Positions 237 through 42,203 of a DNA stretch of 64,000 nt are shown piece after piece. The position numbers and the translations under genes are program-made. Under the pieces are notes generated by a model, which did not search any database, was not told the DNA's origin, and saw nothing but the letters and a program-made list of their open reading frames with translations. Origin of the DNA: a bacterium (GTDB lineage Bacteria > Electryoneota > JAOADG01); NCBI GenBank assembly GCA_963681965.1, contig OY820579.1:1280001-1344000 (forward strand), in the 5' to 3' direction. Position 1 is the stretch's first letter. Each line of letters opens with the position of its first letter.

Positions 237-1454
237 GAAACCTCTGAAAAAATCACTTTTGTATCACTCTCTTTTGCCTCATCAGTCTGATTTCGACGAT
301 TTTCGAAATGAATTGCAAATTTTAGTGTAATTGGGGTCGATTTTGGTTGGATTTTTTGATGATTTTCGGTGATTTCTGCTGCTTGGGCAGAGTTCACTCT
401 CCGATTTATCGTTTTTCAGGTTACCAGCACCAGTTTGCAGGCCCGTTTCAAGTTCACTGCCATGGCGGTAAAGTAGACTTGTGTCAGATTCCGTTCGATA
501 CCGTAATAGCGCAAACGCGCGAGGTGTCCCCACCGCTTCAAGTCGTTCATCTTGGCTTCGATCCGGCTTCGGATCCGTGAGTTGGATCGATTGCGGCATC
601 GCTCATGTTCCGTCAAGCGACGATTGCGTCTTGCCTTGTGAAGAATGCCGTCGTACCAGTGGCGGGCGTGAATCAAGTTGCGGTGTGCCGTCGAATCGTA
701 CGCCTTGTCGGCAAACACGCCACCGGTGTCGTCGGGAAGCAATGCCTCGAACACCTGCGAGTCGTGAACAATATTCGATGTCAAGTCGACTGCTTCGATC
801 AGCTCGCTTTCATGATCCATCGAAACATGCACTTTCATCCCGTCGACCGGTTTATCTTTGCGGACCGTGATGGTTACATCGGGGTCGACCGGAGTACCGT
901 CGGCACGGGTGGAGCCCGCAGTCGTGGCACCCTTGACCAATGTCGCGTCGACCAGTGTACAACTGCGAACGAATAGACCGAACGAAGCCAACTGACGGTT
1001 CAATTCATTGAACAATTCCTTCTCGTAACGAAAGTCGCGCAACCGTTGACGGAACCGAACCAGGGTCGAATCGTCCAACAGATAATCGCGAACGGTAAAA
1101 CCGATAAACCGTTCGAAGCTGCGTCGGTCGTGGATCTCCTGCACCACTTGTACATCCGACAGACCGTACCATTGTTCCAACAGCAACGCTTTGAACAACA
1201 TCAACGGCGGGATCGGGGGGCGACCGCGGGTGCCGCGGTACATCCGCATTAGCAGCGACTCGATCGGACGAAAATCGATCAACCGATCGATCTCATCAAG
1301 CATGCTCTTCTTGTGACGGCGACACTGATCGTCTAGTTCACCGAAGGTAATCCATTCGCGGGTAGAGGGAACGAGGGACATTGTAAACTCCGTTATAGGC
1401 TCTAACGGCAATACGAGATAATCATCAAAAACGTGGGATTAAATCAGAGGTTTC
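237..1454 (-). mobile_element. IS5-family insertion sequence, 1218 bp
   Basis: Perfect 11-bp terminal IRs GAAACCTCTGA (237-247) / TCAGAGGTTTC (1444-1454), flanked by direct repeat GAATG (232-236, 1455-1459); encodes a single transposase. Confidence 0.92.
416..1411 (-). CDS. IS5-family DDE transposase
   Basis: GRPPIPPLMLFKALLLEQWYGLSD (DUF772-like), LVDATLV, VFADKAYD, RSRIEAK..LKR motifs. Start may be the ATG at 1381. Confidence 0.92.
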   Translation of the reverse strand: MPLEPITEFTMSLVPSTREWITFGELDDQCRRHKKSMLDEIDRLIDFRPIESLLMRMYRGTRGRPPIPPLMLFKALLLEQWYGLSDVQVVQEIHDRRSFERFIGFTVRDYLLDDSTLVRFRQRLRDFRYEKELFNELNRQLASFGLFVRSCTLVDATLVKGATTAGSTRADGTPVDPDVTITVRKDKPVDGMKVHVSMDHESELIEAVDLTSNIVHDSQVFEALLPDDTGGVFADKAYDSTAHRNLIHARHWYDGILHKARRNRRLTEHERCRNRSNSRIRSRIEAKMNDLKRWGHLARLRYYGIERNLTQVYFTAMAVNLKRACKLVLVT

Positions 1455-1655: not shown

Positions 1656-1931
1656 ATGCGTGGAGTGAAGCGAACTGCGGAGCAGATTATCCCGATGCTT
1701 CGTGAAGCGGAAGTTGAGATTGGGAAGGGGATGAGCGTCCGTGAAGTTTGCCGGAAGTTGGGCATCCAGGAACATACTTACTACCACTGGCGCAAGGAAT
1801 ACGGTGGTTTGAAGCTGGATCAGGCGAAGCGTTTGAAGGAACTGGAACGCGAGAATGGCCGTCTTCGGAAGGTCGTATCTGATCTGACCTTGGACAAAGA
1901 GATCCTGCAGGAGGCTCTCAAGGGAAAATAG
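1656..1931 (+). CDS. IS3 OrfA (HTH)
   Basis: EQII..LRE, VCRKLGI..TYYHWRKEYGG, LKELERENGRLRKVVSDLTLD; GGGAGG RBS upstream. Confidence 0.92.
   Translation: MRGVKRTAEQIIPMLREAEVEIGKGMSVREVCRKLGIQEHTYYHWRKEYGGLKLDQAKRLKELERENGRLRKVVSDLTLDKEILQEALKGK
1922..1928 (+). promoter_or_regulatory. -1 programmed ribosomal frameshift slippery site (G GGA AAA)
   Basis: X XXY YYZ heptamer in the OrfA frame directly before its TAG; the -1 frame reads into OrfB (AAA ATA GTG TGC CCG). Confidence 0.75.
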
Positions 1932-2806
1932 TGTGCCCGGCGAAGCGTCGCGAGACTGCGCTTACTGTTCGCCATTCGCTGGGCATTGATCGGGTCTCGG
2001 AACGACGGGTCTGTACGGTTCTTTGCGAACCACGAACGAGTCACCGGTATGCACCGCTTCGTCGTGCCGACGAAGGCCCGTTGGTCTCGCTGGTGGTATT
2101 TCTGGCTTGCCAGTATGGCGGGTATGGCTACCGGATCGTAACGGCGATGATCCGTAACATCGGCTGGCGGGTAAACCACAAACGGGTGGAACGGATCTGG
2201 CGACAGTCCGGACTGAAGGTCCCGAAGAAGCAGAAGAAGCGTCGAAGACTGTGGCTGAATGATGGTTCCTGCATCCGTCTACGTCCGGAACATCCGGATC
2301 ATGTCTGGAGCTTCGACTTTGTCACGTGGCATACGTCGAATGGTCGTTCGTTCAAGATCTTTGCGATCATGGACGAATACACCCGGGAATGCCTTGCGAT
2401 CCTGGTAGCCCGGAAGATCAAGGCGGATGATGTTCTTTGCGTACTGGAAGAACTGTTTGTAGTACGAGGTACACCGATTCATGTTCGTAGTGACAATGGC
2501 CCTGAGTTTACGGCGAATGAGGTACTAGCGTGGCTGCCCCGGGTTGATGTGCAACCCTTGTTTATTACGCCTGGCAGCCCGTGGGAAAACGGATACATCG
2601 AAAGTTTTAACTGTCGGTTGAAACTGTTGCTGAAGGGTGAAATCTTTGATACCATATTGGAAGCAAAGGTGATTATCGAACAATGGCGGCACCATTACAA
2701 TACGATTCGACCGCACAGCTCTTTGGGCTATCTGCCGCCGGCACCGGAAACAGAGTTACCACTCATTCCTGCTCCGCTACGCTACGCAGGAATGAGACCA
2801 GTGTGA
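1931..2806 (+). CDS. IS3 OrfB (rve/DDE catalytic domain)
   Basis: VWSFDFV, SDNGPEF, PGSPWENGYIESFN, YNTIRPHSSLGY. Confidence 0.92.
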   Translation: MCPAKRRETALTVRHSLGIDRVSERRVCTVLCEPRTSHRYAPLRRADEGPLVSLVVFLACQYGGYGYRIVTAMIRNIGWRVNHKRVERIWRQSGLKVPKKQKKRRRLWLNDGSCIRLRPEHPDHVWSFDFVTWHTSNGRSFKIFAIMDEYTRECLAILVARKIKADDVLCVLEELFVVRGTPIHVRSDNGPEFTANEVLAWLPRVDVQPLFITPGSPWENGYIESFNCRLKLLLKGEIFDTILEAKVIIEQWRHHYNTIRPHSSLGYLPPAPETELPLIPAPLRYAGMRPV

Positions 2807-2853
2807 CATAGACACTGGTACAAATAATGGGGGCAGATCATGACGATACAGCA

Positions 2854-3330
2854 TCAACGCTTCGTTAATACTTCAACAACGGCTTTATGTCCATTATATT
2901 TTGCAACATTTAGCGGCGTATCTTCATCGCTAGTTCGAATGTTCGGGTTAGCACCTTTCGACAAAAGAAATTCAACTACTTCCGCATGACCATTCATTGC
3001 CGCCAAGAATAATGGAGTTTGTTCCATGAATCCACTTTTTGCATTCACGTTTGCCCCCTTGGAAACAAGAAATTCAACGACATCTTTACGAGCATTAAAT
3101 GCTGCTGTGTGAAGCGGCGTTTCCTTTGCGGGTGTGTTGATGGAATCAATCTCAGCTCCAGATTCTATGAGAAATTGTACGTAATTTAGTTTTCCATGCT
3201 CAGCCGCCACGTAGAGCGGCGTCCAATTGTCCATATCCTTAGATTTTGCATTCACTAAAGCTGGATTGTTTGTCAGAATTATACGCAGAAGTCCAAAATC
3301 CTGACCTTTTACCGCATCCCATATTTCCAT
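2854..3330 (-). CDS. Ankyrin-repeat protein (about 4 repeats)
   Basis: TPLYVAAEHG, TPLHTAAFNA, TPLFLAAMNGH, TPLNVAKYNGH with GANVN/GANPN turns. Confidence 0.93.
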   Translation of the reverse strand: MEIWDAVKGQDFGLLRIILTNNPALVNAKSKDMDNWTPLYVAAEHGKLNYVQFLIESGAEIDSINTPAKETPLHTAAFNARKDVVEFLVSKGANVNAKSGFMEQTPLFLAAMNGHAEVVEFLLSKGANPNIRTSDEDTPLNVAKYNGHKAVVEVLTKR

Positions 3331-3472
3331 TTTGATGGCCTCGTTTCTGAATGCTCTTGAGATTTGATCGTTTTACTATTAATTGTACAGCCATTCTTCC
3401 GCTTTCCGCATCGATTTGCTTGCGGAATCGGAATAACCTACATAAGAAAAACCGGAATACTCGACTTAGACC

Positions 3473-3703
3473 TCACGCGAGTGATGATTCGATTCTACGC
3501 CGAACCCACTCACAATGACAAGTGCCTTCACAACGACAAATGACACAATCGCCGTCACAATCACCCTTGACACATAGAATGTTCGGTAAGTCCGATTCAA
3601 TCTGCTGAATACTGATTATCTTACAATCGCTTGTATTCGCAAGTGTGGTGGCATAAATCGACGATAAAGAGTAGTCGATCTCATTTTGGTTCGATGATTC
3701 CAT
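3473..3703 (-). CDS. Cys-rich 76-aa peptide, putative RiPP precursor
   Basis: Strong GGAGGT RBS; starts 18 bp after the rSAM stop; 7 Cys in residues 44-64 (CVKGDCDGDCVICRCEGTCHCEW). Confidence 0.7.
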   Translation of the reverse strand: MESSNQNEIDYSLSSIYATTLANTSDCKIISIQQIESDLPNILCVKGDCDGDCVICRCEGTCHCEWVRRRIESSLA

Positions 3704-3721
3704 TTTACCTCCGATACGTAA

Positions 3722-5080
3722 TTAGCCTAAAATAGAATTTGCGTGAAAATAATTAAATTCTGTATTACCATTTGAAATCTCTTTTAAGTAATATTCCATT
3801 AATCCGCGTGCGATCTTGCAATGATCCAATTTTGTGCCATCGTATGCATCTCCGAGTCGCATTGCTTTAACTGGACAACCTCCAGAGCAATGCCATTTTG
3901 CCAAGCAAAGACTGCATTTAGGCATATTGTAAATAGATCGAGCCGTTAAAGGAATTCTAACATCATTCCAAATGTCAAATTTGTTCGTTTCGGAATTATA
4001 TTGTCCGATAAAGAATACTTTTGACATAGGATCTTCAGACATTGAAACCTCTGTACAAGAGGTAACAAAACCTTCAGGCGTAACGTAAAAATTCTCTCCG
4101 ACTGCTCCACAAAATACAGACGACAAGGTTTCTATCCTTATAGCAGAACATAATAATTCAATATTCAGATTAGATGCTATCGAAAGACATTCAATAAACC
4201 TGTCGGTGAATGTTTTAGTATCAGGCATTAGTTCAGGCGATGTACTACATCGTCCACATGCAAACAACGGCTCAAAGTGGACCCTTTTTATCCCTAATGA
4301 ACCAAAGTATTCCAAAATTGATGGCATCAAATCTACTGAGTATGAAGATATTGTAGATCTAATTGTTAATTGAAGCTCACTTTTAACAAAATCTTTGATA
4401 CTATTTTCAATTACTCCGAAAGACATTTTGGAATTACGTGTCGGACGATGATAATTTTGTATATCCTTAGTACCATCAAAAGAAATACTCAAGTGCTGAA
4501 AGTTTGCAATTGTCCAATTTATTTGTCTTTTTGTTAGCAGACCATTTGTGACACCGCTAATAATAACTTGAATACCAGTGAGTTTCTCTTTCTCTCTGCT
4601 ATATTTAATAACTTTCTTCATTAATTCCCATGCTAAAAATGGCTCACCTCCACCCAAAAAACTAATTCTTACTTTTGAGCCGCTCTTTTCCAATGCATTA
4701 GAAAAAATATTATCAATTGCACATTTTGCAATTTGCCATTTCAAATACTTTGATGTAATGCCTGCATTCGCATAGCAATAAATGCACTTTAAATTGCAAT
4801 CAGATGTCGGAAGTAGCGTTAAACTTGTTGGTTTATATTCTGCAGATGAAGATTTTATGTCATCAGGAATTTGATCTAAAGAATTAATAATACCCAAATT
4901 TTCTAACCTTAATAAAATTCTTTTGGTATAATCATCGTTAGGTAATGTTTTATTTGAATTTACAAGTTGCAACAAAGCTACAACTTCCTCATTTACTTTG
5001 AGTACGAGACGTAGAAGAGGAGCGTAAATTATGAAACAATCCTCGTACGGAAGTACATACATTTCATTTATCACATTCAT
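3722..5080 (-). CDS. Radical SAM/SPASM protein with probable N-terminal RRE (PqqD-like) domain
   Basis: CNLKCIYC, FLGGGEP, TNG, ISFDG motifs; SPASM Cys pattern FCGA..TSC..CSLCLAKWHCSGGCP..HC; N-terminal beta-strands and helices ending LENLGII. Start moved to ATG 5080 from the TTG at 5206 in the ORF track. Confidence 0.92.
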   Translation of the reverse strand: MNVINEMYVLPYEDCFIIYAPLLRLVLKVNEEVVALLQLVNSNKTLPNDDYTKRILLRLENLGIINSLDQIPDDIKSSSAEYKPTSLTLLPTSDCNLKCIYCYANAGITSKYLKWQIAKCAIDNIFSNALEKSGSKVRISFLGGGEPFLAWELMKKVIKYSREKEKLTGIQVIISGVTNGLLTKRQINWTIANFQHLSISFDGTKDIQNYHRPTRNSKMSFGVIENSIKDFVKSELQLTIRSTISSYSVDLMPSILEYFGSLGIKRVHFEPLFACGRCSTSPELMPDTKTFTDRFIECLSIASNLNIELLCSAIRIETLSSVFCGAVGENFYVTPEGFVTSCTEVSMSEDPMSKVFFIGQYNSETNKFDIWNDVRIPLTARSIYNMPKCSLCLAKWHCSGGCPVKAMRLGDAYDGTKLDHCKIARGLMEYYLKEISNGNTEFNYFHANSILG

Positions 5081-5225
5081 GAGTTTCCAACTCGTTAATT
5101 GTACAACCACGTTTCTGCTTTCCGCAATGCTTTGTTTGTGGAATCGAAATGACCCACTAGAAATCTGACAGCAAACGCAACGAAAACTTCGTTGGTATTT
5201 TGCCAAAAATCCGCTTGGACAAAGC

Positions 5226-5423
5226 TCAATCCTTTAAGTATACTTTTTCGTGGTGAGATTTATCATGGCTACCACATTCGGGACATTTTTCTCCACCATT
5301 ACTGCCATGACATTCATGGCAATATTTTTCACCACACTTTTCACATTTATAGATCCAAAAATGCGAAGTAGATAATCCGGCTTTACCTGAATGTCCACAA
5401 CGTGGGCAAGAATCTTGCGACAT
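5226..5423 (-). CDS. Small zinc-finger protein (4 CxxC, 65 aa)
   Basis: CPRC, CEKC, CHEC, CPEC; AGAGGAG RBS before ATG 5423. Confidence 0.75.
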   Translation of the reverse strand: MSQDSCPRCGHSGKAGLSTSHFWIYKCEKCGEKYCHECHGSNGGEKCPECGSHDKSHHEKVYLKD

Positions 5424-5521
5424 ATTTTCTCCTCTTTTCGATATTTGGGGCACTGGCCGTTCTTGTTAACCAGTTGCCTACTTTAACTTGTACCTCTTAC
5501 CAATGAGTGTCGAGGTCCCCA

Positions 5522-5758
5522 ATGGAGTGTATCCATTGTCAACAATTGGATCAAGTCCGATTGAAAGGTTCCTGTACTTTGAAGAGCGGCGATGTTACGA
5601 ACATGTATATCTGCAAACGCTGCCACAAAACCTTCTGTGACCGCACTGGAACTGCGTTGTATCATTGTCAGCTTTCGAAACAGGATGCCGCTTCGAAACT
5701 TGCTGGTAAGCAAAAAAAAGGTCGCGCAACACACAACGAAGATCTTAGTGAAATATAA
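5522..5758 (+). pseudogene. IS1/IS1595-like transposase zinc-ribbon fragment
   Basis: CIHC...YICKRCHKTFCDRTGTALYH pattern; GAGGT RBS; no DDE domain follows. Confidence 0.55.
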
Positions 5759-5794
5759 TTGTTCCCATGGGATGGTGCTGCGAAATTGGGAAAT

Positions 5795-5824
5795 AAAAAA
5801 GCCCAACGCAATCAAGCACCGGGC
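5795..5824 (-). terminator. Intrinsic terminator after small ORF
   Basis: Minus strand GCCCGGTGC-TTGATT-GCGTTGGGC followed by TTTTTT. Confidence 0.65.
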
Positions 5825-5826
5825 AT

Positions 5827-5913
5827 TCACCAGTTGAGACGAAGCACTTCCACACCGTCAGGATCATCGAACGGGATCTTTAACCAATCGTGGTAGTTTT
5901 CTGGAATCTTCAT
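5827..5913 (-). CDS. Possible 28-aa small protein (MKIPENYHDWLKIPFDDPDGVEVLRLNW)
   Basis: Purine-rich sequence (GGAAAAGAAGAAAG) before the ATG; terminator directly after the stop. Confidence 0.35.
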   Translation of the reverse strand: MKIPENYHDWLKIPFDDPDGVEVLRLNW

Positions 5914-6083
5914 CGTCTTTCTTCTTTTCCAACTTTCCAAGATAACTCTTTTGAGTTTTGCAAACAACTCTCCTCTCTTGGTCAAACTAAGAGGAGCGGG
6001 TAGTTCATTCCGACTCTGTTTCCAGTATTCGTTCAACACGCCCTACCCGCAAACCCGCACTGAACGCAGTCATCTTTTTCGGC

Positions 6084-6101
6084 GTAGCGGGGTTATGATT
6101 T
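6084..6101 (-). repeat. Degenerate duplicate of tRNA-fMet 3' end (att-like)
   Basis: GTAGCGGGGTTATGATTT (6084-6101) versus GTAGCGGGGGTAGGATTT (6157-6174): 16/18 identical. Confidence 0.7.
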
Positions 6102-6117
6102 ACATCACAAATAACGC

Positions 6118-6152
6118 AAAAAAGACCTACTGTTTTAGTAGGTCTTCTTTTT
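6118..6152 (-). terminator. Intrinsic terminator downstream of tRNA
   Basis: AGACCTAC/GTAGGTCT hairpin flanked by A and T runs. Confidence 0.75.
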
Positions 6153-6157
6153 GAGTG

Positions 6158-6231
<74 letters not shown>

Positions 6232-6316
6232 TCAGTGATATTGCTATCAGCCTTGCAATATATGCAAGTTCCTCAATCAAATGCAAATAATCGCCGTAAA
6301 CCTAGATTGTACAACG

Positions 6317-36329: not shown

Positions 36330-37043
36330 ATGGCGACAGGGTCGCGCGGCATGAGTACCCGCGTTATTTTGCTTCCAGGCATGCTCGGCACGATTGCCAA
36401 TGATTGGAAGCCCCACTTTGAAGCCATTCTCGATGCAGGTTTCGAACCGGTCGGAATCGACTGGCCCGGCCATGGCAACGAAGATGCCGACCTCGAAGCA
36501 TTCACGTTGCAATCTCTGGTCGACCATGTTTTGGCTAGAATCGACACAATCACCGATGAGCCAGTATTAATCTGGGGTTATGACCTCGGAGGATATGTTG
36601 CGCTCGAAATTGAGCGACAGCTCCCCGGACGTTGTTCGGCAATCTGGATGCATGCAACGAAGTTCTTTTGGAACGACGACGAGATTGATGCATTTCATGC
36701 CAATAACGATCTGGCAACAATGTCTTCGCACCGCAAAGAGACGTTGGTAAAGATCCACGGCGATCGATGGCAGAAATTGTTGCAGGTTAATCTGGATCTT
36801 TTCGAGGAAATCATCGAATTCGGTTTGACGCTCGACGATTTAGAAGGAATTCGATTACCGGTATTGGTTTCAACCGGCAATCAAGATGAATTTGTTCCGA
36901 CGGAAGACATCGAGCAGTTGGCAGATGAGTTGATTGCGGGAGAACCATCCATTATTCCCGGTGTTCGGCATCCACTGCATTCGACGCGATCGTCGCTGAT
37001 TATTCCGGTAGCGGAAGAATTTTCGCGTCGTGTATTGGTGTGA
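36330..37043 (+). CDS. Alpha/beta-fold hydrolase
   Basis: LLPGMLG, DWPGHG, GYDLGG elbow, GNQDEFV, late His (VRHP). Confidence 0.85.
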   Translation: MATGSRGMSTRVILLPGMLGTIANDWKPHFEAILDAGFEPVGIDWPGHGNEDADLEAFTLQSLVDHVLARIDTITDEPVLIWGYDLGGYVALEIERQLPGRCSAIWMHATKFFWNDDEIDAFHANNDLATMSSHRKETLVKIHGDRWQKLLQVNLDLFEEIIEFGLTLDDLEGIRLPVLVSTGNQDEFVPTEDIEQLADELIAGEPSIIPGVRHPLHSTRSSLIIPVAEEFSRRVLV

Positions 37044-39336: not shown

Positions 39337-40221
39337 TTATTTCAGTCGAAGCGAGGCGACCTCGATTGCAACAGGAGATGAGTCGATTCCAATCCAATTT
39401 CGACCTAATTTCCTGGCGACTATACATGTAGTTCCGCTGCCACAGCAAGGATCGAGGATGATACTTTCAGGTTCCGACCAACCGAGAATTATTCGCTCTA
39501 GAAGCGCTTCCGGTTTTTGAGTTGGATATCCCGAACGTTCGATTGCCATCGGATTGAGTGCCGGGATTTCCCAGACATCGCTTGGTAGTTTGGTCGTGTT
39601 ATCAGGATCGATCCGGGCACCTTTCGGGTTTTGAGCACGAAGTAGAGCTTTTTCGGCACGGGGTTCGGGGATTCGTTCCGGGTGAAAAATCGATCCGGTT
39701 TTTGACTTGGAGTACCAGAAGATGATATCGTGCTTTTTTGCTAGAACACGTTTCCCGGCACCACCAGTGGAATATCGCCAAACAATCTCATTCCGAAAAT
39801 GACCATATCCAAAGAGATAATCGCAGATTACTTTTAAGTAATGACTCATCGTCGGGTCACAATGAAGGAATAGGTTGCCTCGATCCGAAATTCTTTCATG
39901 ACAATGGGCAATTCGAATCGCCAAATGAGTTAGATAAGTGATTGCGGATTTTGGGATTATGTTATCATTCCAGCTTATGAACAAGGATGTCAATCGCGGA
40001 GCGATTTGCGTGAGTGCAATCTGTTCCGACGAAAGATCGGTATCATGCCACACATCCGAAAAACCAATTTCACTCGGCGTTAATCTTGCCGATTGGGTTT
40101 TAAAGACTCGTTGAGTATAAAATGGCGGGTCGAGATATACTAGATCGAATTTGATGCTTGAGCCAGTTAATGCAAGCTGGTTGAAAAAATCGAGGTTGTC
40201 GCTGTGGATTAATTGATTCAT
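39337..40221 (-). CDS. Site-specific amino-methyltransferase (N6A/N4C, beta class)
   Basis: YLDPPF, FRNEIVW, YPTQKPEALLERII, LDPCCGSGTT. Confidence 0.93.
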   Translation of the reverse strand: MNQLIHSDNLDFFNQLALTGSSIKFDLVYLDPPFYTQRVFKTQSARLTPSEIGFSDVWHDTDLSSEQIALTQIAPRLTSLFISWNDNIIPKSAITYLTHLAIRIAHCHERISDRGNLFLHCDPTMSHYLKVICDYLFGYGHFRNEIVWRYSTGGAGKRVLAKKHDIIFWYSKSKTGSIFHPERIPEPRAEKALLRAQNPKGARIDPDNTTKLPSDVWEIPALNPMAIERSGYPTQKPEALLERIILGWSEPESIILDPCCGSGTTCIVARKLGRNWIGIDSSPVAIEVASLRLK

Positions 40222-40922
40222 TACAATTCTTTAAGTTAACATCGCACTGTCACAGGCGAATAGAATAATTTACTACGTTTTCAGGCGGAGACAATGCGAT
40301 TAGATCTTTATTGTAAACTGTGATCTTAAATTTGGTTTAAATCTTAGTTCAAGTCCTGATTTCATCAGTGAGAATCGGTTGTGATTTCACAATCGCATTT
40401 CATTTCGATTTTTTCGTTTTTCGTCGACTTCTCAAAGAATTTGAGTAGTATACACAATTATGTGCAGATTATTGCGATATTTATCTAAAAAGAAGCAATA
40501 ATCAAATCAAAACCACATACATTCGTAGATTTAGGAAGTTGTGATTACATTTCCGAATTGCTATCTTCGAGATGGTGTTTTGGATTGATCCGCTTAGTTG
40601 ATTGCAATCAGATTGAATCATTGCCGTTTAAGACACGTTTTAATCTGGTGGAATTAAGGTGCATCAAATAAGTTAAATTGATGTCGCGTAATCTAAATGA
40701 GCGAATTGCCAGTTTTACCTGTTCGAGAGAAGAGTTGACGCGGCGCATACTTCGGGATTGCATTTTATCGTATTTTATTCATCGAAGTAACGAACACCTC
40801 AATTAAATTCGTCAATAAAGCGAATTTCTAGTTTTTCTTGTGGTATTTATGTGAAGTCGTACGAGCGTGGAGATAATTTTAATGTGTTGTGAAATAGTAT
40901 TATCGATGGTCTGGAGCGTTAA

Positions 40923-42203
40923 ATGAATGTAATAGAGAACAAGAGCAATAAAAAAAAGGTACAGTTATTCTGGTCCGCAATTTTTAGTATTTATCTCTTT
41001 ATTCTCCTTTTCGTTGGTCGATTTGAAGCAATGACTTTTTCGATAAATAAAATATTGAGTCCACTCTTTGTGCTTATTATTACATTAGTCTTTTTTAAAC
41101 AAATCTATCACTTGCCAATGGAAATGGCTTATTTCGCTGCGTTTGTTGCTTGGTGTGCAACGGGTATCGTTGTTTACATGATTCCTCAATTTTTCTGGCA
41201 ACAATATTTTAGAATAATCGGTGTCTTTTTTCTAACCCTCATTGTCGTACTAATTGTTTCGAGATTTGGAGAAATTAAATACCCTCTGCTGGCAATTTTT
41301 CTAGTAGCAATGGCTTTCCGGTTCCACAGTTTTTTAACTGGATCAGTTTTAGGTCTCGAAAATAGCTCCGAAGCCATCCGAGAGCGAGGTCTAATCGGTA
41401 ATGCAAATGGTTTCGGATTCATTATGTTTACCGGAATTATTAGTATTTTCTACTTCTGGCGAACATCGAAAATGTTTTCGAAAACAATGATAATAATCGG
41501 GATGATTCCCCTTAGTACGGGCATTTTATTATCTGCTTCCCGAAAATCATTTATGACCTTGTTACTTTTCTTTGCGTTGTGGCTCTGGTTTTGCGCTCGA
41601 AAAATGCTCCTCAGAAACAAGTACTATTTCATTCTCAGTGTGTTGTTGATCATTGGCGCCTATCAAGGGACTGGGTATGTCTTGCAAAATACTTACTTAG
41701 GTGTCCGTCTTTCGAAAATGCAAGAAGATGAAGGGTATTTAGGTCAAACCCGCATGAAACTCTATCGTGAAGGGTTTGATATGGTTAAAAAATATCCAAT
41801 CACAGGGGTTGGTCTCGGTAACTATGGATACCATGCATCAAAACAAACCTATGCTCACTCCGATGTCATGGAAGTCTGGTCTACAACTGGTTCGATTGGA
41901 TTGATTCTCTACGTTTCGATGTACATTATGCTTTGGATAAGGATGAATCGGTTGTTAAGAATGAATCTTGATGAAGAACAGCGCTATACGATCAACTTTT
42001 GGAAGGTGCTGATTGTCTCATTTATCATTTTGGGAATCGGAAGACCGAATTTCTCAGATTACATCTTAATGACATTTATGGGGTTAATCATCGGATATGT
42101 TCGATATGTCGAGATCGAAGTACGTAGGAGGATCGCCGCAAAACGCTTTCAATACGAGAACCGTCCCCAACTATCAACAGCAGGTGTACTAAGTAATGCG
42201 TAA
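40923..42203 (+). CDS. O-antigen ligase/polymerase (Wzy_C) family protein
   Basis: Many TM helices; GNANGFG, SASRK, PITGVGLGNY, YAHS. Confidence 0.85.
   Translation: MNVIENKSNKKKVQLFWSAIFSIYLFILLFVGRFEAMTFSINKILSPLFVLIITLVFFKQIYHLPMEMAYFAAFVAWCATGIVVYMIPQFFWQQYFRIIGVFFLTLIVVLIVSRFGEIKYPLLAIFLVAMAFRFHSFLTGSVLGLENSSEAIRERGLIGNANGFGFIMFTGIISIFYFWRTSKMFSKTMIIIGMIPLSTGILLSASRKSFMTLLLFFALWLWFCARKMLLRNKYYFILSVLLIIGAYQGTGYVLQNTYLGVRLSKMQEDEGYLGQTRMKLYREGFDMVKKYPITGVGLGNYGYHASKQTYAHSDVMEVWSTTGSIGLILYVSMYIMLWIRMNRLLRMNLDEEQRYTINFWKVLIVSFIILGIGRPNFSDYILMTFMGLIIGYVRYVEIEVRRRIAAKRFQYENRPQLSTAGVLSNA

Follow-up and report, generated by a model that had tools for sequence, protein, structure and literature searches.

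A candidate two-gene RiPP cassette in an Electryoneota genome pairs a radical SAM/SPASM enzyme with a peptide of the C-x-K-G-D-C family

Maturases that combine a radical S-adenosylmethionine (SAM) core with a SPASM region are a major source of new peptide cross-links, and many orphan families of such enzymes exist. The product of one such maturase, CteB, has reportedly been reassigned as a ranthipeptide. In C-x3-D/E motifs, PapB joins Cys to the acidic residue, Asp or Glu, and accepts n = 0-6 spacer residues, according to PMC9413430, and CrpC of Methanococcus voltae (TIGR04463) installs ranthionines on a Cys-rich protein, the C-X-X-Q/D motif of its substrates being called suggestive of thioether formation in PMC13692751. 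Here we analyze a 64,000-nucleotide stretch of a bacterial genome assigned to Electryoneota (contig OY820579.1, positions 1,280,001 to 1,344,000; hereafter the window), in which the gene for a 452-residue radical SAM/SPASM enzyme is followed by that for a 76-residue Cys-rich peptide. By analogy with the systems above, we read the pair, on balance, as a two-gene cassette for a peptide made on the ribosome and then modified post-translationally (RiPP) with ranthipeptide-like chemistry, in which thioethers would join Cys to the side chains of Asp or Glu.

The open reading frame (ORF) of the peptide (3473-3703, minus strand; MESSNQNEIDYSLSSIYATTLANTSDCKIISIQQIESDLPNILCVKGDCDGDCVICRCEGTCHCEWVRRRIESSLA) begins with an ATG 18 nt past the enzyme stop codon, and the intervening spacer, TTACGTATCGGAGGTAAA, places a GGAGGT ribosome-binding site 3 nt before the start. 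Cysteines occur at positions 27, 44, 49, 53, 56, 58, 62 and 64 of the peptide. Two acid units, C44-VKG-D48 (C-x3-D) and C49-DG-D52 (C-x2-D), are followed by the CxCE motifs C56-R-C58-E59 and C62-H-C64-E65. The original prediction for this locus, made from the DNA letters alone, had described an enzyme with a CxxxCxxC motif and a seven-Cys SPASM pattern, a 76-residue ORF 18 nt further on with its GGAGGT, and a core containing C44-D48 as Cx3D and two CxCE motifs; all of these sequence details proved correct. A TTG start at 5206, which would extend the enzyme to 494 residues, was rejected, as all 34 aligned homologues either begin at the position of M1 ('MNVINEMYVLP') or have unrelated extensions.

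A collection of 5.8 billion proteins contains 57 relatives of the enzyme, of which 28 share 41-52% identity with it; these 28 are all unnamed and nearly all metagenomic. Genomic context was taken from the best 80 of 278 relatives in GTDB species genomes, which gave 79 loci, and from the best 80 of at least 456 relatives in metagenomes, for a total of 159 loci. The enzyme is at least 43% identical to that of the window in eleven of these, eight of which extend into downstream DNA, and in seven of the eight a peptide of the same family, with a D/N-Y-S/T-L leader and a C-x-K-G-D-C core, lies behind the enzyme. Two loci (L084 and L089) hold two copies of the peptide each, and the peptides of L082 and L103 are identical, so the seven loci represent six different peptide sets. 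At the eighth locus, L085, the leader is present and the CxKGDC part is absent from the DNA retrieved; we counted it as a miss, and note that peptide P0088 has the same leader together with the CxKGDC part. Among the loci fetched, no CxKGDC peptide was found beside an enzyme outside this close clade, and the C-x-R-G-D-C strings in L049, L160 and L130 are thousands of bases from the enzyme gene.

The same association is seen in the phylogeny of the enzyme. A FastTree tree of 177 enzyme rows was built after leaving out 11 of the 159 loci with a match shorter than 380 residues or containing a stop or X, one duplicate row, and collection proteins shorter than 400 residues or duplicating a locus; L057, whose enzyme (46% identity) is interrupted by a contig end, was among those left out. 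The window enzyme falls within a 31-row clade (support 100) made up of six rows with a CxKGDC peptide downstream, two that reach a contig end and 23 without DNA context. Because all of the CxKGDC-bearing rows visible in the tree lie inside this supported clade, the enzyme clade and the peptide family travel together. For ten enzyme/peptide pairs the longest contigs are equal in size (5842, 100096, 24926, 10440, 48743, 35556, 5285, 9895, 10531 and 1928), which indirectly indicates that these pairs share contigs. Taken together, we consider it very probable that enzyme and peptide are a cognate enzyme-substrate pair.

A word-index search with the window peptide alone returned only the peptide itself. 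A profile built from nine peptides found beside close enzymes recovered 36 clusters from the 5.8-billion-protein collection, with E-values from 8e-23 to 8e-9, and an exhaustive search of 1.84 billion proteins gave 24 representative clusters at E ≤ 1e-3. In a self-exclusion test, a hidden Markov model of 35 peptides without that of the window was run against the 1247 six-frame ORFs of at least 30 residues in the window; the window peptide was found at an E-value of 5.8e-14 and the runner-up ORF at 0.015. This runner-up (36570-36839, minus strand) contains the string ELRCMHPDC, and its E-value is at chance level; we judged it to be noise.

Alignment of the 36 peptides reveals that C44, K46, G47, D48 and C49 are invariant in all of them, defining the motif C-x-K-G-D-C, and that Y11, D52 and a terminal P-G are each present in at least 90%. 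The family consensus reads ...DYSLE...P-x-I...EVESPEVR-C-M-K-G-D-C-N-G-D-Y-A-P-G. The window peptide has both defining parts, D10-Y-S-L13 in the leader and C44-V-K-G-D-C49-D-G-D52 in the core, with Lys in place of the family Pro that precedes the leader Ile (K28-I29). The region past D52 varies: most family peptides end in ...CMKGDCNGDYAPG (YAPG), the typical predicted core being these C-terminal 13 residues, while one subgroup has C-C-K-D-C-x-G-x-x-x-G-G after the conserved unit, and longer Cys-rich tails are found in P0106 (75 residues), P0099, P0101, P0107 and the window peptide. D52 is followed by Tyr in most members and by Cys in the window peptide and several others. As judged from this alignment, the window core is a conserved nine-residue unit with a lineage-specific extension (CVICRCEGTCHCEW...). 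The idea that a frameshift gave rise to this tail was rejected, as the consensus ending is found in no alternative frame.

These comparisons qualify the earlier view of an unfamiliar core. The window peptide matches no NCBIfam model, that for SCIFF included, and neither do ten peptides from the close and wider families; the only Pfam match of the precursor, to DUF6660, is at chance level (14.2 bits, cut-off 27). Only C44-x-K-G-D-C49-x-x-D52 is conserved in the family, the tail is a variable extension, and the CxCE motifs resemble the units that dominate the precursors of a wider family described below.

The enzyme has the hallmarks of a radical SAM/SPASM protein. Of the radical SAM motif, C95 and C99 occur in every one of the 35 aligned sequences and C102 in at least 90% of them; the seven Cys residues of the SPASM region are likewise found in all 35, with the spacing of the SPASM pattern, C-x17-C (with G-x4-C) ... 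C-x2-C-x5-C-x3-C ... C; about 80 residues lie N-terminal to the radical SAM core. Pfam Radical_SAM matches with 42.4 bits (cut-off 29.5), Fer4_12 is also matched, and Pfam SPASM scores 15.8 bits, under its cut-off of 21.5. The top NCBIfam score is that of the PapB profile NF047865 (141.2 bits, cut-off 340), followed by the SCIFF maturase TIGR03974 (128.3, cut-off 425), the Nif11-type maturase profile (115, cut-off 519), CefB (96, cut-off 600), QhpD TIGR03906 (88.3, cut-off 453), the anaerobic sulfatase maturase TIGR03942 (64, cut-off 349) and the CrpC family TIGR04463 (56.8, cut-off 525). The window enzyme falls short of every NCBIfam cut-off, as do nine further enzymes from the close and wider families, and six other family members score 112-154 bits on the PapB profile. 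The enzyme therefore belongs neither to the anaerobic sulfatase maturases nor to a described curated family, either of which would have told against the original prediction; that prediction had seen a Cys spacing unlike that of SCIFF or freyrasin. In a defence-system library the enzyme matched viperin models only, and only in their radical SAM core; membership of the viperins was rejected on that ground.

By sequence, the closest relative of known structure is CteB (PDB 5WGG, E 1e-23). An AlphaFold2 model of the enzyme, computed from the 35-sequence alignment, has a mean pLDDT of 90.5, and CteB is again the best solved fold, with a VIA-align Z of 33.7 and a root mean square deviation (rmsd) of 3.9 over 395 aligned positions spanning model residues 4-437; Foldseek TM scores between the model and CteB are 0.71-0.77. 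The second-best solved fold is anSME (Z 29.3, rmsd 2.8, 334 aligned), in an alignment that starts at residue 83, and further matches are TigE (Z 27.6), ChlB (27.4), SkfB (22.1) and SuiB (21.9). The Atlas matches of a homologue, P0014, are unnamed radical SAM clusters, a cluster of the PapB family (rank 10, score 0.97) and, at a TM of 0.82, a SCIFF maturase.

For the putative RiPP recognition element (RRE) that the original prediction had seen in the shape of the enzyme N-terminus, structural models speak in favour and the Pfam PqqD profile (below) against. Strands are predicted at residues 8-12, 15-20 and 25-29 and helices at 31-41 and 50-61, an order of elements that an RRE would be expected to show. 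Within the whole-enzyme model this RRE-like domain aligns with CteB from residue 4. It contains a 'YAPL' region, with Y19 and P21 invariant, that is also kept in the wider family. Complex prediction, with alignments for both chains, three runs and three controls, gave an ipSAE of 0.80 for enzyme and peptide in three runs and of 0.00 for the best of the controls; of 80 solved complexes 58 attain this value, as do 2 of 110 mismatched pairs. The runs have at least 51% of contacts in common, with a partner pLDDT of ~50. Confident contacts place peptide residues 8-16 and 18-38 against enzyme residues 7-11, 15-16 and 23-39, with peptide residues 27-33 lying along the enzyme strand at 25-30, and the docked segments are the two conserved segments of the leader. 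The models thus support binding of the leader by the RRE-like domain.

A scheme for the cassette can be drawn by analogy with the characterized enzymes. The 76-residue peptide would be the substrate of the adjoining enzyme, whose N-terminal RRE-like domain would bind the leader, the DYSL and P/K-I-I segments pairing with strands beta1 and beta3, and this binding would thread the C-terminal core into the active site of the radical SAM domain. There, a 5'-deoxyadenosyl radical and two auxiliary SPASM clusters would serve to join the sulfur of Cys to a carbon in the side chain of an acidic residue close by, yielding ranthionine-type thioethers like those of PapB, QhpD and CrpC. The foreseen links are C44-D48 and C49-D52, to which C56-E59 and C62-E65 may be added in the window organism, and the outcome would be a chain of small rings. 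Side-chain thioethers between Cys and acid are expected because the nearest characterized enzymes make Cys thioethers and the acid units of the peptide fit. We infer the existence of the cross-link, its thioether nature and the carbon attacked, as well as any leader removal, export and biological role. We lean towards a product that holds a thioether of some kind, and offer the narrower claim, that the links are specifically Cys-to-Asp/Glu, as a tentative one about which our doubts slightly exceed our confidence.

The nearest sequence relatives outside the clade form a wider family, at 28-40% identity to the window enzyme, with hosts among the DPANN and other archaea, Bacteroidota, KSB1, Planctomycetota, Chloroflexota and others, and on a plasmid of Methylocystis iwaonis. 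By a crude filter, a Cys-rich ORF lies downstream of the enzyme in 90 of the 148 full-length loci of this family; there is none in 42, and 11 stop at a contig end. A Cys-rich neighbour of homologous enzymes, on which the original prediction turned, is therefore found in this family as well as in the close loci. The wider-family precursors have 70-146 residues, units of the form CxC[D/E/N/Q], and leaders such as KPNDRL or KPNYRI. In 82 distinct Cys-rich cores from this family there are 212 occurrences of C-x2-[D/E], where shuffled sequences have 87.7 ± 8.1, and 205 of C-x2-[N/Q], where they have 77.6, an enrichment that shuffle z-scores overstate because the peptides are related and repetitive. 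The two CxCE motifs of the window peptide are of the same C-x-C-D/E/N/Q type, a pattern that is visible by eye.

A number of observations weigh against the proposed chemistry, or against parts of the evidence for it. The transfer of function spans an identity of only ~20-23%, judged from sequence comparison, with every curated thioether-maturase model under its cut-off. C-x3-[D/E] is depleted in the wider-family cores (51 observed, 85.7 expected), so that the putative C44-D48 link draws no support from these relatives. Neither a plain Cys-Asp link nor its spacing accounts for the invariance of K46 and G47, and two peptides depart from the motif (P0102 with CQGHC and P0108 with CSKRDC). In the enzyme, C275 (motif EPLFACGRC) is kept in at least 90% of the family, while the aligned segment of CteB has no Cys; from its conservation, C275 could be an eighth ligand of the auxiliary clusters. 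Auxiliary cluster I of CteB is reportedly ligated by a substrate Cys, and if C275 completes this cluster, CteB-style ligation by the substrate would not apply. Pfam PqqD finds no match at E ≤ 1 in enzyme residues 1-80, so the RRE assignment rests on structure prediction. The core, from residue 44 on, has no confident placement in the complex model. Complexes of like kind, CteB/CteA, SuiB/SuiA and ChlB/ChlA, have been solved and are in the fold match lists, so the success of the docking may reflect likeness to these rather than recognition within this particular pair.

The alternative that survives best, which we nevertheless regard as unlikely, is a different radical reaction on C-x-K-G-D-C, such as a C-C or C-N link with Lys46, epimerisation or oxidation of Cys, with the Cys residues acting as metal or disulfide partners. 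The invariance of K46 and G47 across all 36 peptides, which equals that of the Cys and Asp residues, is in its favour, as is the diversity of RRE-bearing SPASM enzymes of similar fold, among them TigE (cyclopropylglycine), SuiB (a Lys-Trp link) and ChlB. Profiles of the DynA, GrrM/OscB and YhhB cross-link maturases also score 52-71 bits on the enzyme, those of GrrM/OscB and YhhB being named as cyclophane-forming. Against this, the invariant segment has no conserved aromatic residue, the Tyr after D52 being replaced by Cys in the window peptide and several others, and the top curated profiles are those of thioether formers. We also give some thought, and little weight, to the idea that the invariant KGD is more than a spacer, taking part in a new type of cross-link (for example through Lys46) or forming a rigid, thioether-framed recognition loop, and that so minimal a cassette is a mobile conflict or signalling module and not an antibiotic pathway; it is found repeatedly among genes of island type, such as toxin-antitoxin pairs, a WYL regulator, HNH-HIT, ParB-N/methyltransferase, DUF4238 and IS elements.

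A second alternative keeps the same enzyme and substrate and places the sulfur on the alpha-carbon of the acceptor, giving sactionines as in sactipeptides. Sactisynthases and ranthisynthases are inseparable by overall sequence. According to PMC10288494, no threshold of a sequence similarity network groups the known sactisynthases, and mass spectrometry after desulfurisation and deuteration cannot by itself assign the carbon for acceptors other than Gly. The enzyme has weak matches to sactisynthase profiles (for example RumMC, 63 bits) and the fold match to SkfB noted above. The top matches in both profile and structure are nonetheless PapB and CteB and not sactisynthases, and acids conserved at a set distance from Cys fit the pattern of side-chain links between Cys and Asp/Glu, which makes sactionines quite unlikely in our view.

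Less likely again is a cassette that a mobile island carries along in inactive form, or a Cys-rich tail that is a degenerate reading, with no defined product in this organism. The locus does lie in an AT-rich island between insertion sequence (IS) elements and a tRNA gene, and the tail past D52 deviates from the consensus ...DYAPG. Both ORFs are intact, however, with all of the family-invariant residues of enzyme and peptide present and a good ribosome-binding site; the consensus ending is not hidden in another frame, and the four peptides named above also have Cys-rich tails. We scarcely credit an anaerobic sulfatase maturase or other protein-directed SPASM enzyme beside an incidental small ORF: anSME is the second-best solved fold, but it has no N-terminal domain, so that its alignment starts only at residue 83, the TIGR03942 score is under cut-off, neither the ORF lists nor the family scans reveal a sulfatase in 2854-6300, and enzyme clade and small ORF are conserved together.

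The preferred reading, a cassette for ranthipeptide-like thioethers, concerns two genes alone, as none of the other genes examined recurs beside the close homologues. On the strand of the enzyme gene, and 146 nt upstream of it, is a 75-residue zinc-ribbon-like ORF that contains four CxxC pairs and has only weak matches (TIGR04165, 20.9 bits, cut-off 60). It was rejected as a second precursor or partner, as the best E-value in a tblastn search of the 159 loci is 0.91 and the regions upstream of the eight close loci contain no counterpart. The ankyrin-repeat protein on the other side was likewise rejected as a partner, being matched only at L074, ~3 kb from the enzyme there. No protease, exporter or other enzyme is common to the loci of the close homologues. 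Because zinc-ribbon ORF, ankyrin protein, protease and exporter do not recur, the conserved unit consists of the enzyme and peptide genes. The coordinates of these and the neighbouring features are collected in Table 1.

Table 1. Features of the cassette and its surroundings, in window coordinates.
Feature	Position	Strand	Basis or remark
Radical SAM/SPASM peptide maturase, 452 aa	3722..5080	-	ORF from ATG
Predicted N-terminal RRE-like domain, ~residues 1-70 of enzyme	4871..5080	-	Predicted structure, leader docking
C95-x3-C99-x2-C102 radical SAM cluster motif	4775..4798	-	Sequence reading
SPASM region, Cys 324, 342, 389, 392, 398, 402, 421	3818..4111	-	Invariant 35/35; aligns with CteB SPASM region
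GGAGGT ribosome-binding site of peptide gene	3707..3712	-	Reverse complement of 3704-3721 is TTACGTATCGGAGGTAAA, then ATG
Precursor leader, residues 1-43, motifs D10-Y-S-L13 and K28-I-I	3575..3703	-	Alignment, complex model
Precursor core, residues 44-76 and stop: CVKGDCDGDC VICRCEGTCHCEW, then RRRIESSLA	3473..3574	-	Alignment
Zinc-ribbon-like ORF, 75 aa, upstream of enzyme	5226..5453	-	Weak Zn-ribbon matches
Ankyrin-repeat protein, downstream neighbour	2854..3330	-	Pfam Ank families, E 1e-33
tRNA-Met, one flank of AT-rich island	6157..6231	-	ARAGORN
Transposase ORF, IS5-like	416-1411	-	Label read from translation alone
Transposase ORF, IS3-like	1656-2806	+	Label read from translation alone
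Short Cys-rich ORF with CxxC pairs	5507-5758	+	Between cassette and tRNA-Met
Short ORF	5827-6039	-	Between cassette and tRNA-Met

The AT-rich, tRNA-linked setting reported for the locus is apparent in its composition. The enzyme gene has a GC content of 33.7% and is where the GC of the window, taken in stretches of 1.5 kb, is lowest (0.345, against a mean of 0.454 with a standard deviation of 0.032), and GC is 0.39 over 2854-6100 as against 0.54 over 416-2806. This AT-rich stretch comprises the ankyrin ORF, the cassette, the zinc-ribbon-like ORF and the two short ORFs, and is flanked by the two transposase ORFs on one side and by tRNA-Met and then guaB on the other. The short ORFs have no reliable Pfam match and may be remnants of mobile elements. 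ORF lists and family scans reveal no protease or transporter ORF in 2854-6300, as the original prediction had it for the immediate neighbours, guessing from this that the product may stay intracellular. Elsewhere in the window, a second low-GC stretch is present at 39751-41750 (0.359-0.365 in 1.5-kb windows).

The genome is a single contig of 4.24 Mb, 99.9% complete, and contains one copy each of enzyme and peptide; the only other match to the enzyme is a weak one, to an unrelated radical SAM protein. Within the phylum, two of 60 other genomes have an enzyme match, both at 31% identity, and no close orthologue is found in any of those searched. Collections of plasmids and phages hold only distant relatives of the enzyme, at 24-32% identity. 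This distribution, together with the AT-rich setting, fits horizontal acquisition. The close loci have varied neighbours, often of the kind found on islands, among them a RelE/Xre pair (L082), a WYL regulator (L087), DUF4238 (L057), and a Roc-COR LRR GTPase, an HNH-HIT protein, a ParB-N/MT-A70 protein and DUF2779 (all at L088); with only five or six loci, the association is anecdotal.

Two of the close loci carry additional genes. The contig of the closest relative, L082, has a second, paralogous radical SAM gene (2388-3837; 440 residues), and a distinct 53-residue Cys-rich ORF lies between this gene and the CxKGDC-type pair. At L086, genes for YcaO and TfuA-like proteins (23-2289) lie directly upstream of an enzyme gene that is 46% identical to that of the window and within which the contig ends. 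To judge from this arrangement, thioamidation may accompany the radical SAM step in some members.

The loci of the wider family are more richly furnished. Among the 159 loci, an upstream protein of ~155 residues with a weak PqqD match forms four clusters, which cover 29, 16, 9 and 5 of them; a neighbour in 27 is a radical SAM enzyme of the B12-binding kind, in 22 a 381-residue protein and in 18 a U32 peptidase-like protein, with a further, putatively U32 peptidase-like cluster of 291 residues in 13. This neighbourhood is apparently that of a larger, undescribed system; neither the window nor the five close loci with flanks contain a PqqD-like protein, B12-radical SAM enzyme or U32 peptidase. 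On the Methylocystis iwaonis plasmid NZ_CP143316.1 (L165), an unannotated ORF of 128 residues, rich in CxC[D/E] units (5422-5808), follows a gene annotated as 'radical SAM protein' whose product is 31% identical to the window enzyme. Routine annotation thus seems to miss the precursors of the wider family.

Two traits make this rare cassette stand out, its very short and sharply conserved core and its minimal two-gene form. Nearly all relatives are metagenomic fragments, whereas the window holds an intact copy, with context, in a complete genome, which makes the chemistry testable. With two adjacent Cys/Asp units, the short core offers a handy minimal substrate for studying the choice of ring size and acceptor carbon, and the tie to the larger family of CxC[D/E/N/Q] repeats suggests a common C-x2-acid logic that can be tested in bacteria and archaea.

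Of the described systems, CteB and its six-Cys SCIFF peptide (TIGR03974; PDB 5WGG and 5WHY) come closest in architecture, with a succession of RRE (in the window enzyme a predicted one), radical SAM core and SPASM region with two auxiliary clusters, and with a layout that is also of two genes; SCIFF loci are not known to have a dedicated protease or exporter. The two enzymes nevertheless share only 20-23% identity, C275 has no counterpart in CteB, and the peptides differ, the core of the window family being C-x-K-G-D-C-x-x-D with no match to the SCIFF model. In the PapB/freyrasin system (NF047865), the likeness lies in the acid units: C44-VKG-D48 is a C-x3-D of the PapB type, and PapB accepts C-x2-D as well. 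PapA, by contrast, has six C-x3-D/E repeats (both points from PMC9413430), where the window family has one C-x3-D and then one C-x2-D, and the PapB profile covers only residues 85-404 of the window enzyme and not its N-terminal domain. CrpC is an RRE-radical SAM-SPASM enzyme that acts on a neighbouring Cys-rich substrate with C-X-X-Q/D units, CrpA, as described in PMC13692751, and the window enzyme, with its predicted RRE, may do the like; C49-DG-D52, C56-RC-E59 and C62-HC-E65 of the window peptide are C-x2-acid units of the CrpA type; CrpA, however, is a large repeat protein, while the peptides of the window family have 55-76 residues. The wider CxC[D/E/N/Q] family has the same gene order, with the peptide downstream, but its precursors are longer and have other leaders.

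The core strings of the family had no relevant match in 8.1 million open papers and 0.36 million preprints, although the supplementary compendia of PMC10288494 and PMC13692751 may list members, and broader searches of the open literature (open-access text and few subscription papers) found no description of the family. By analogy, then, the cassette resembles a SCIFF or PapB-type ranthipeptide cassette, yet it falls outside the curated membership of every named family tested. It represents a new enzyme clade and a new precursor family within the known RRE/radical SAM/SPASM scheme.

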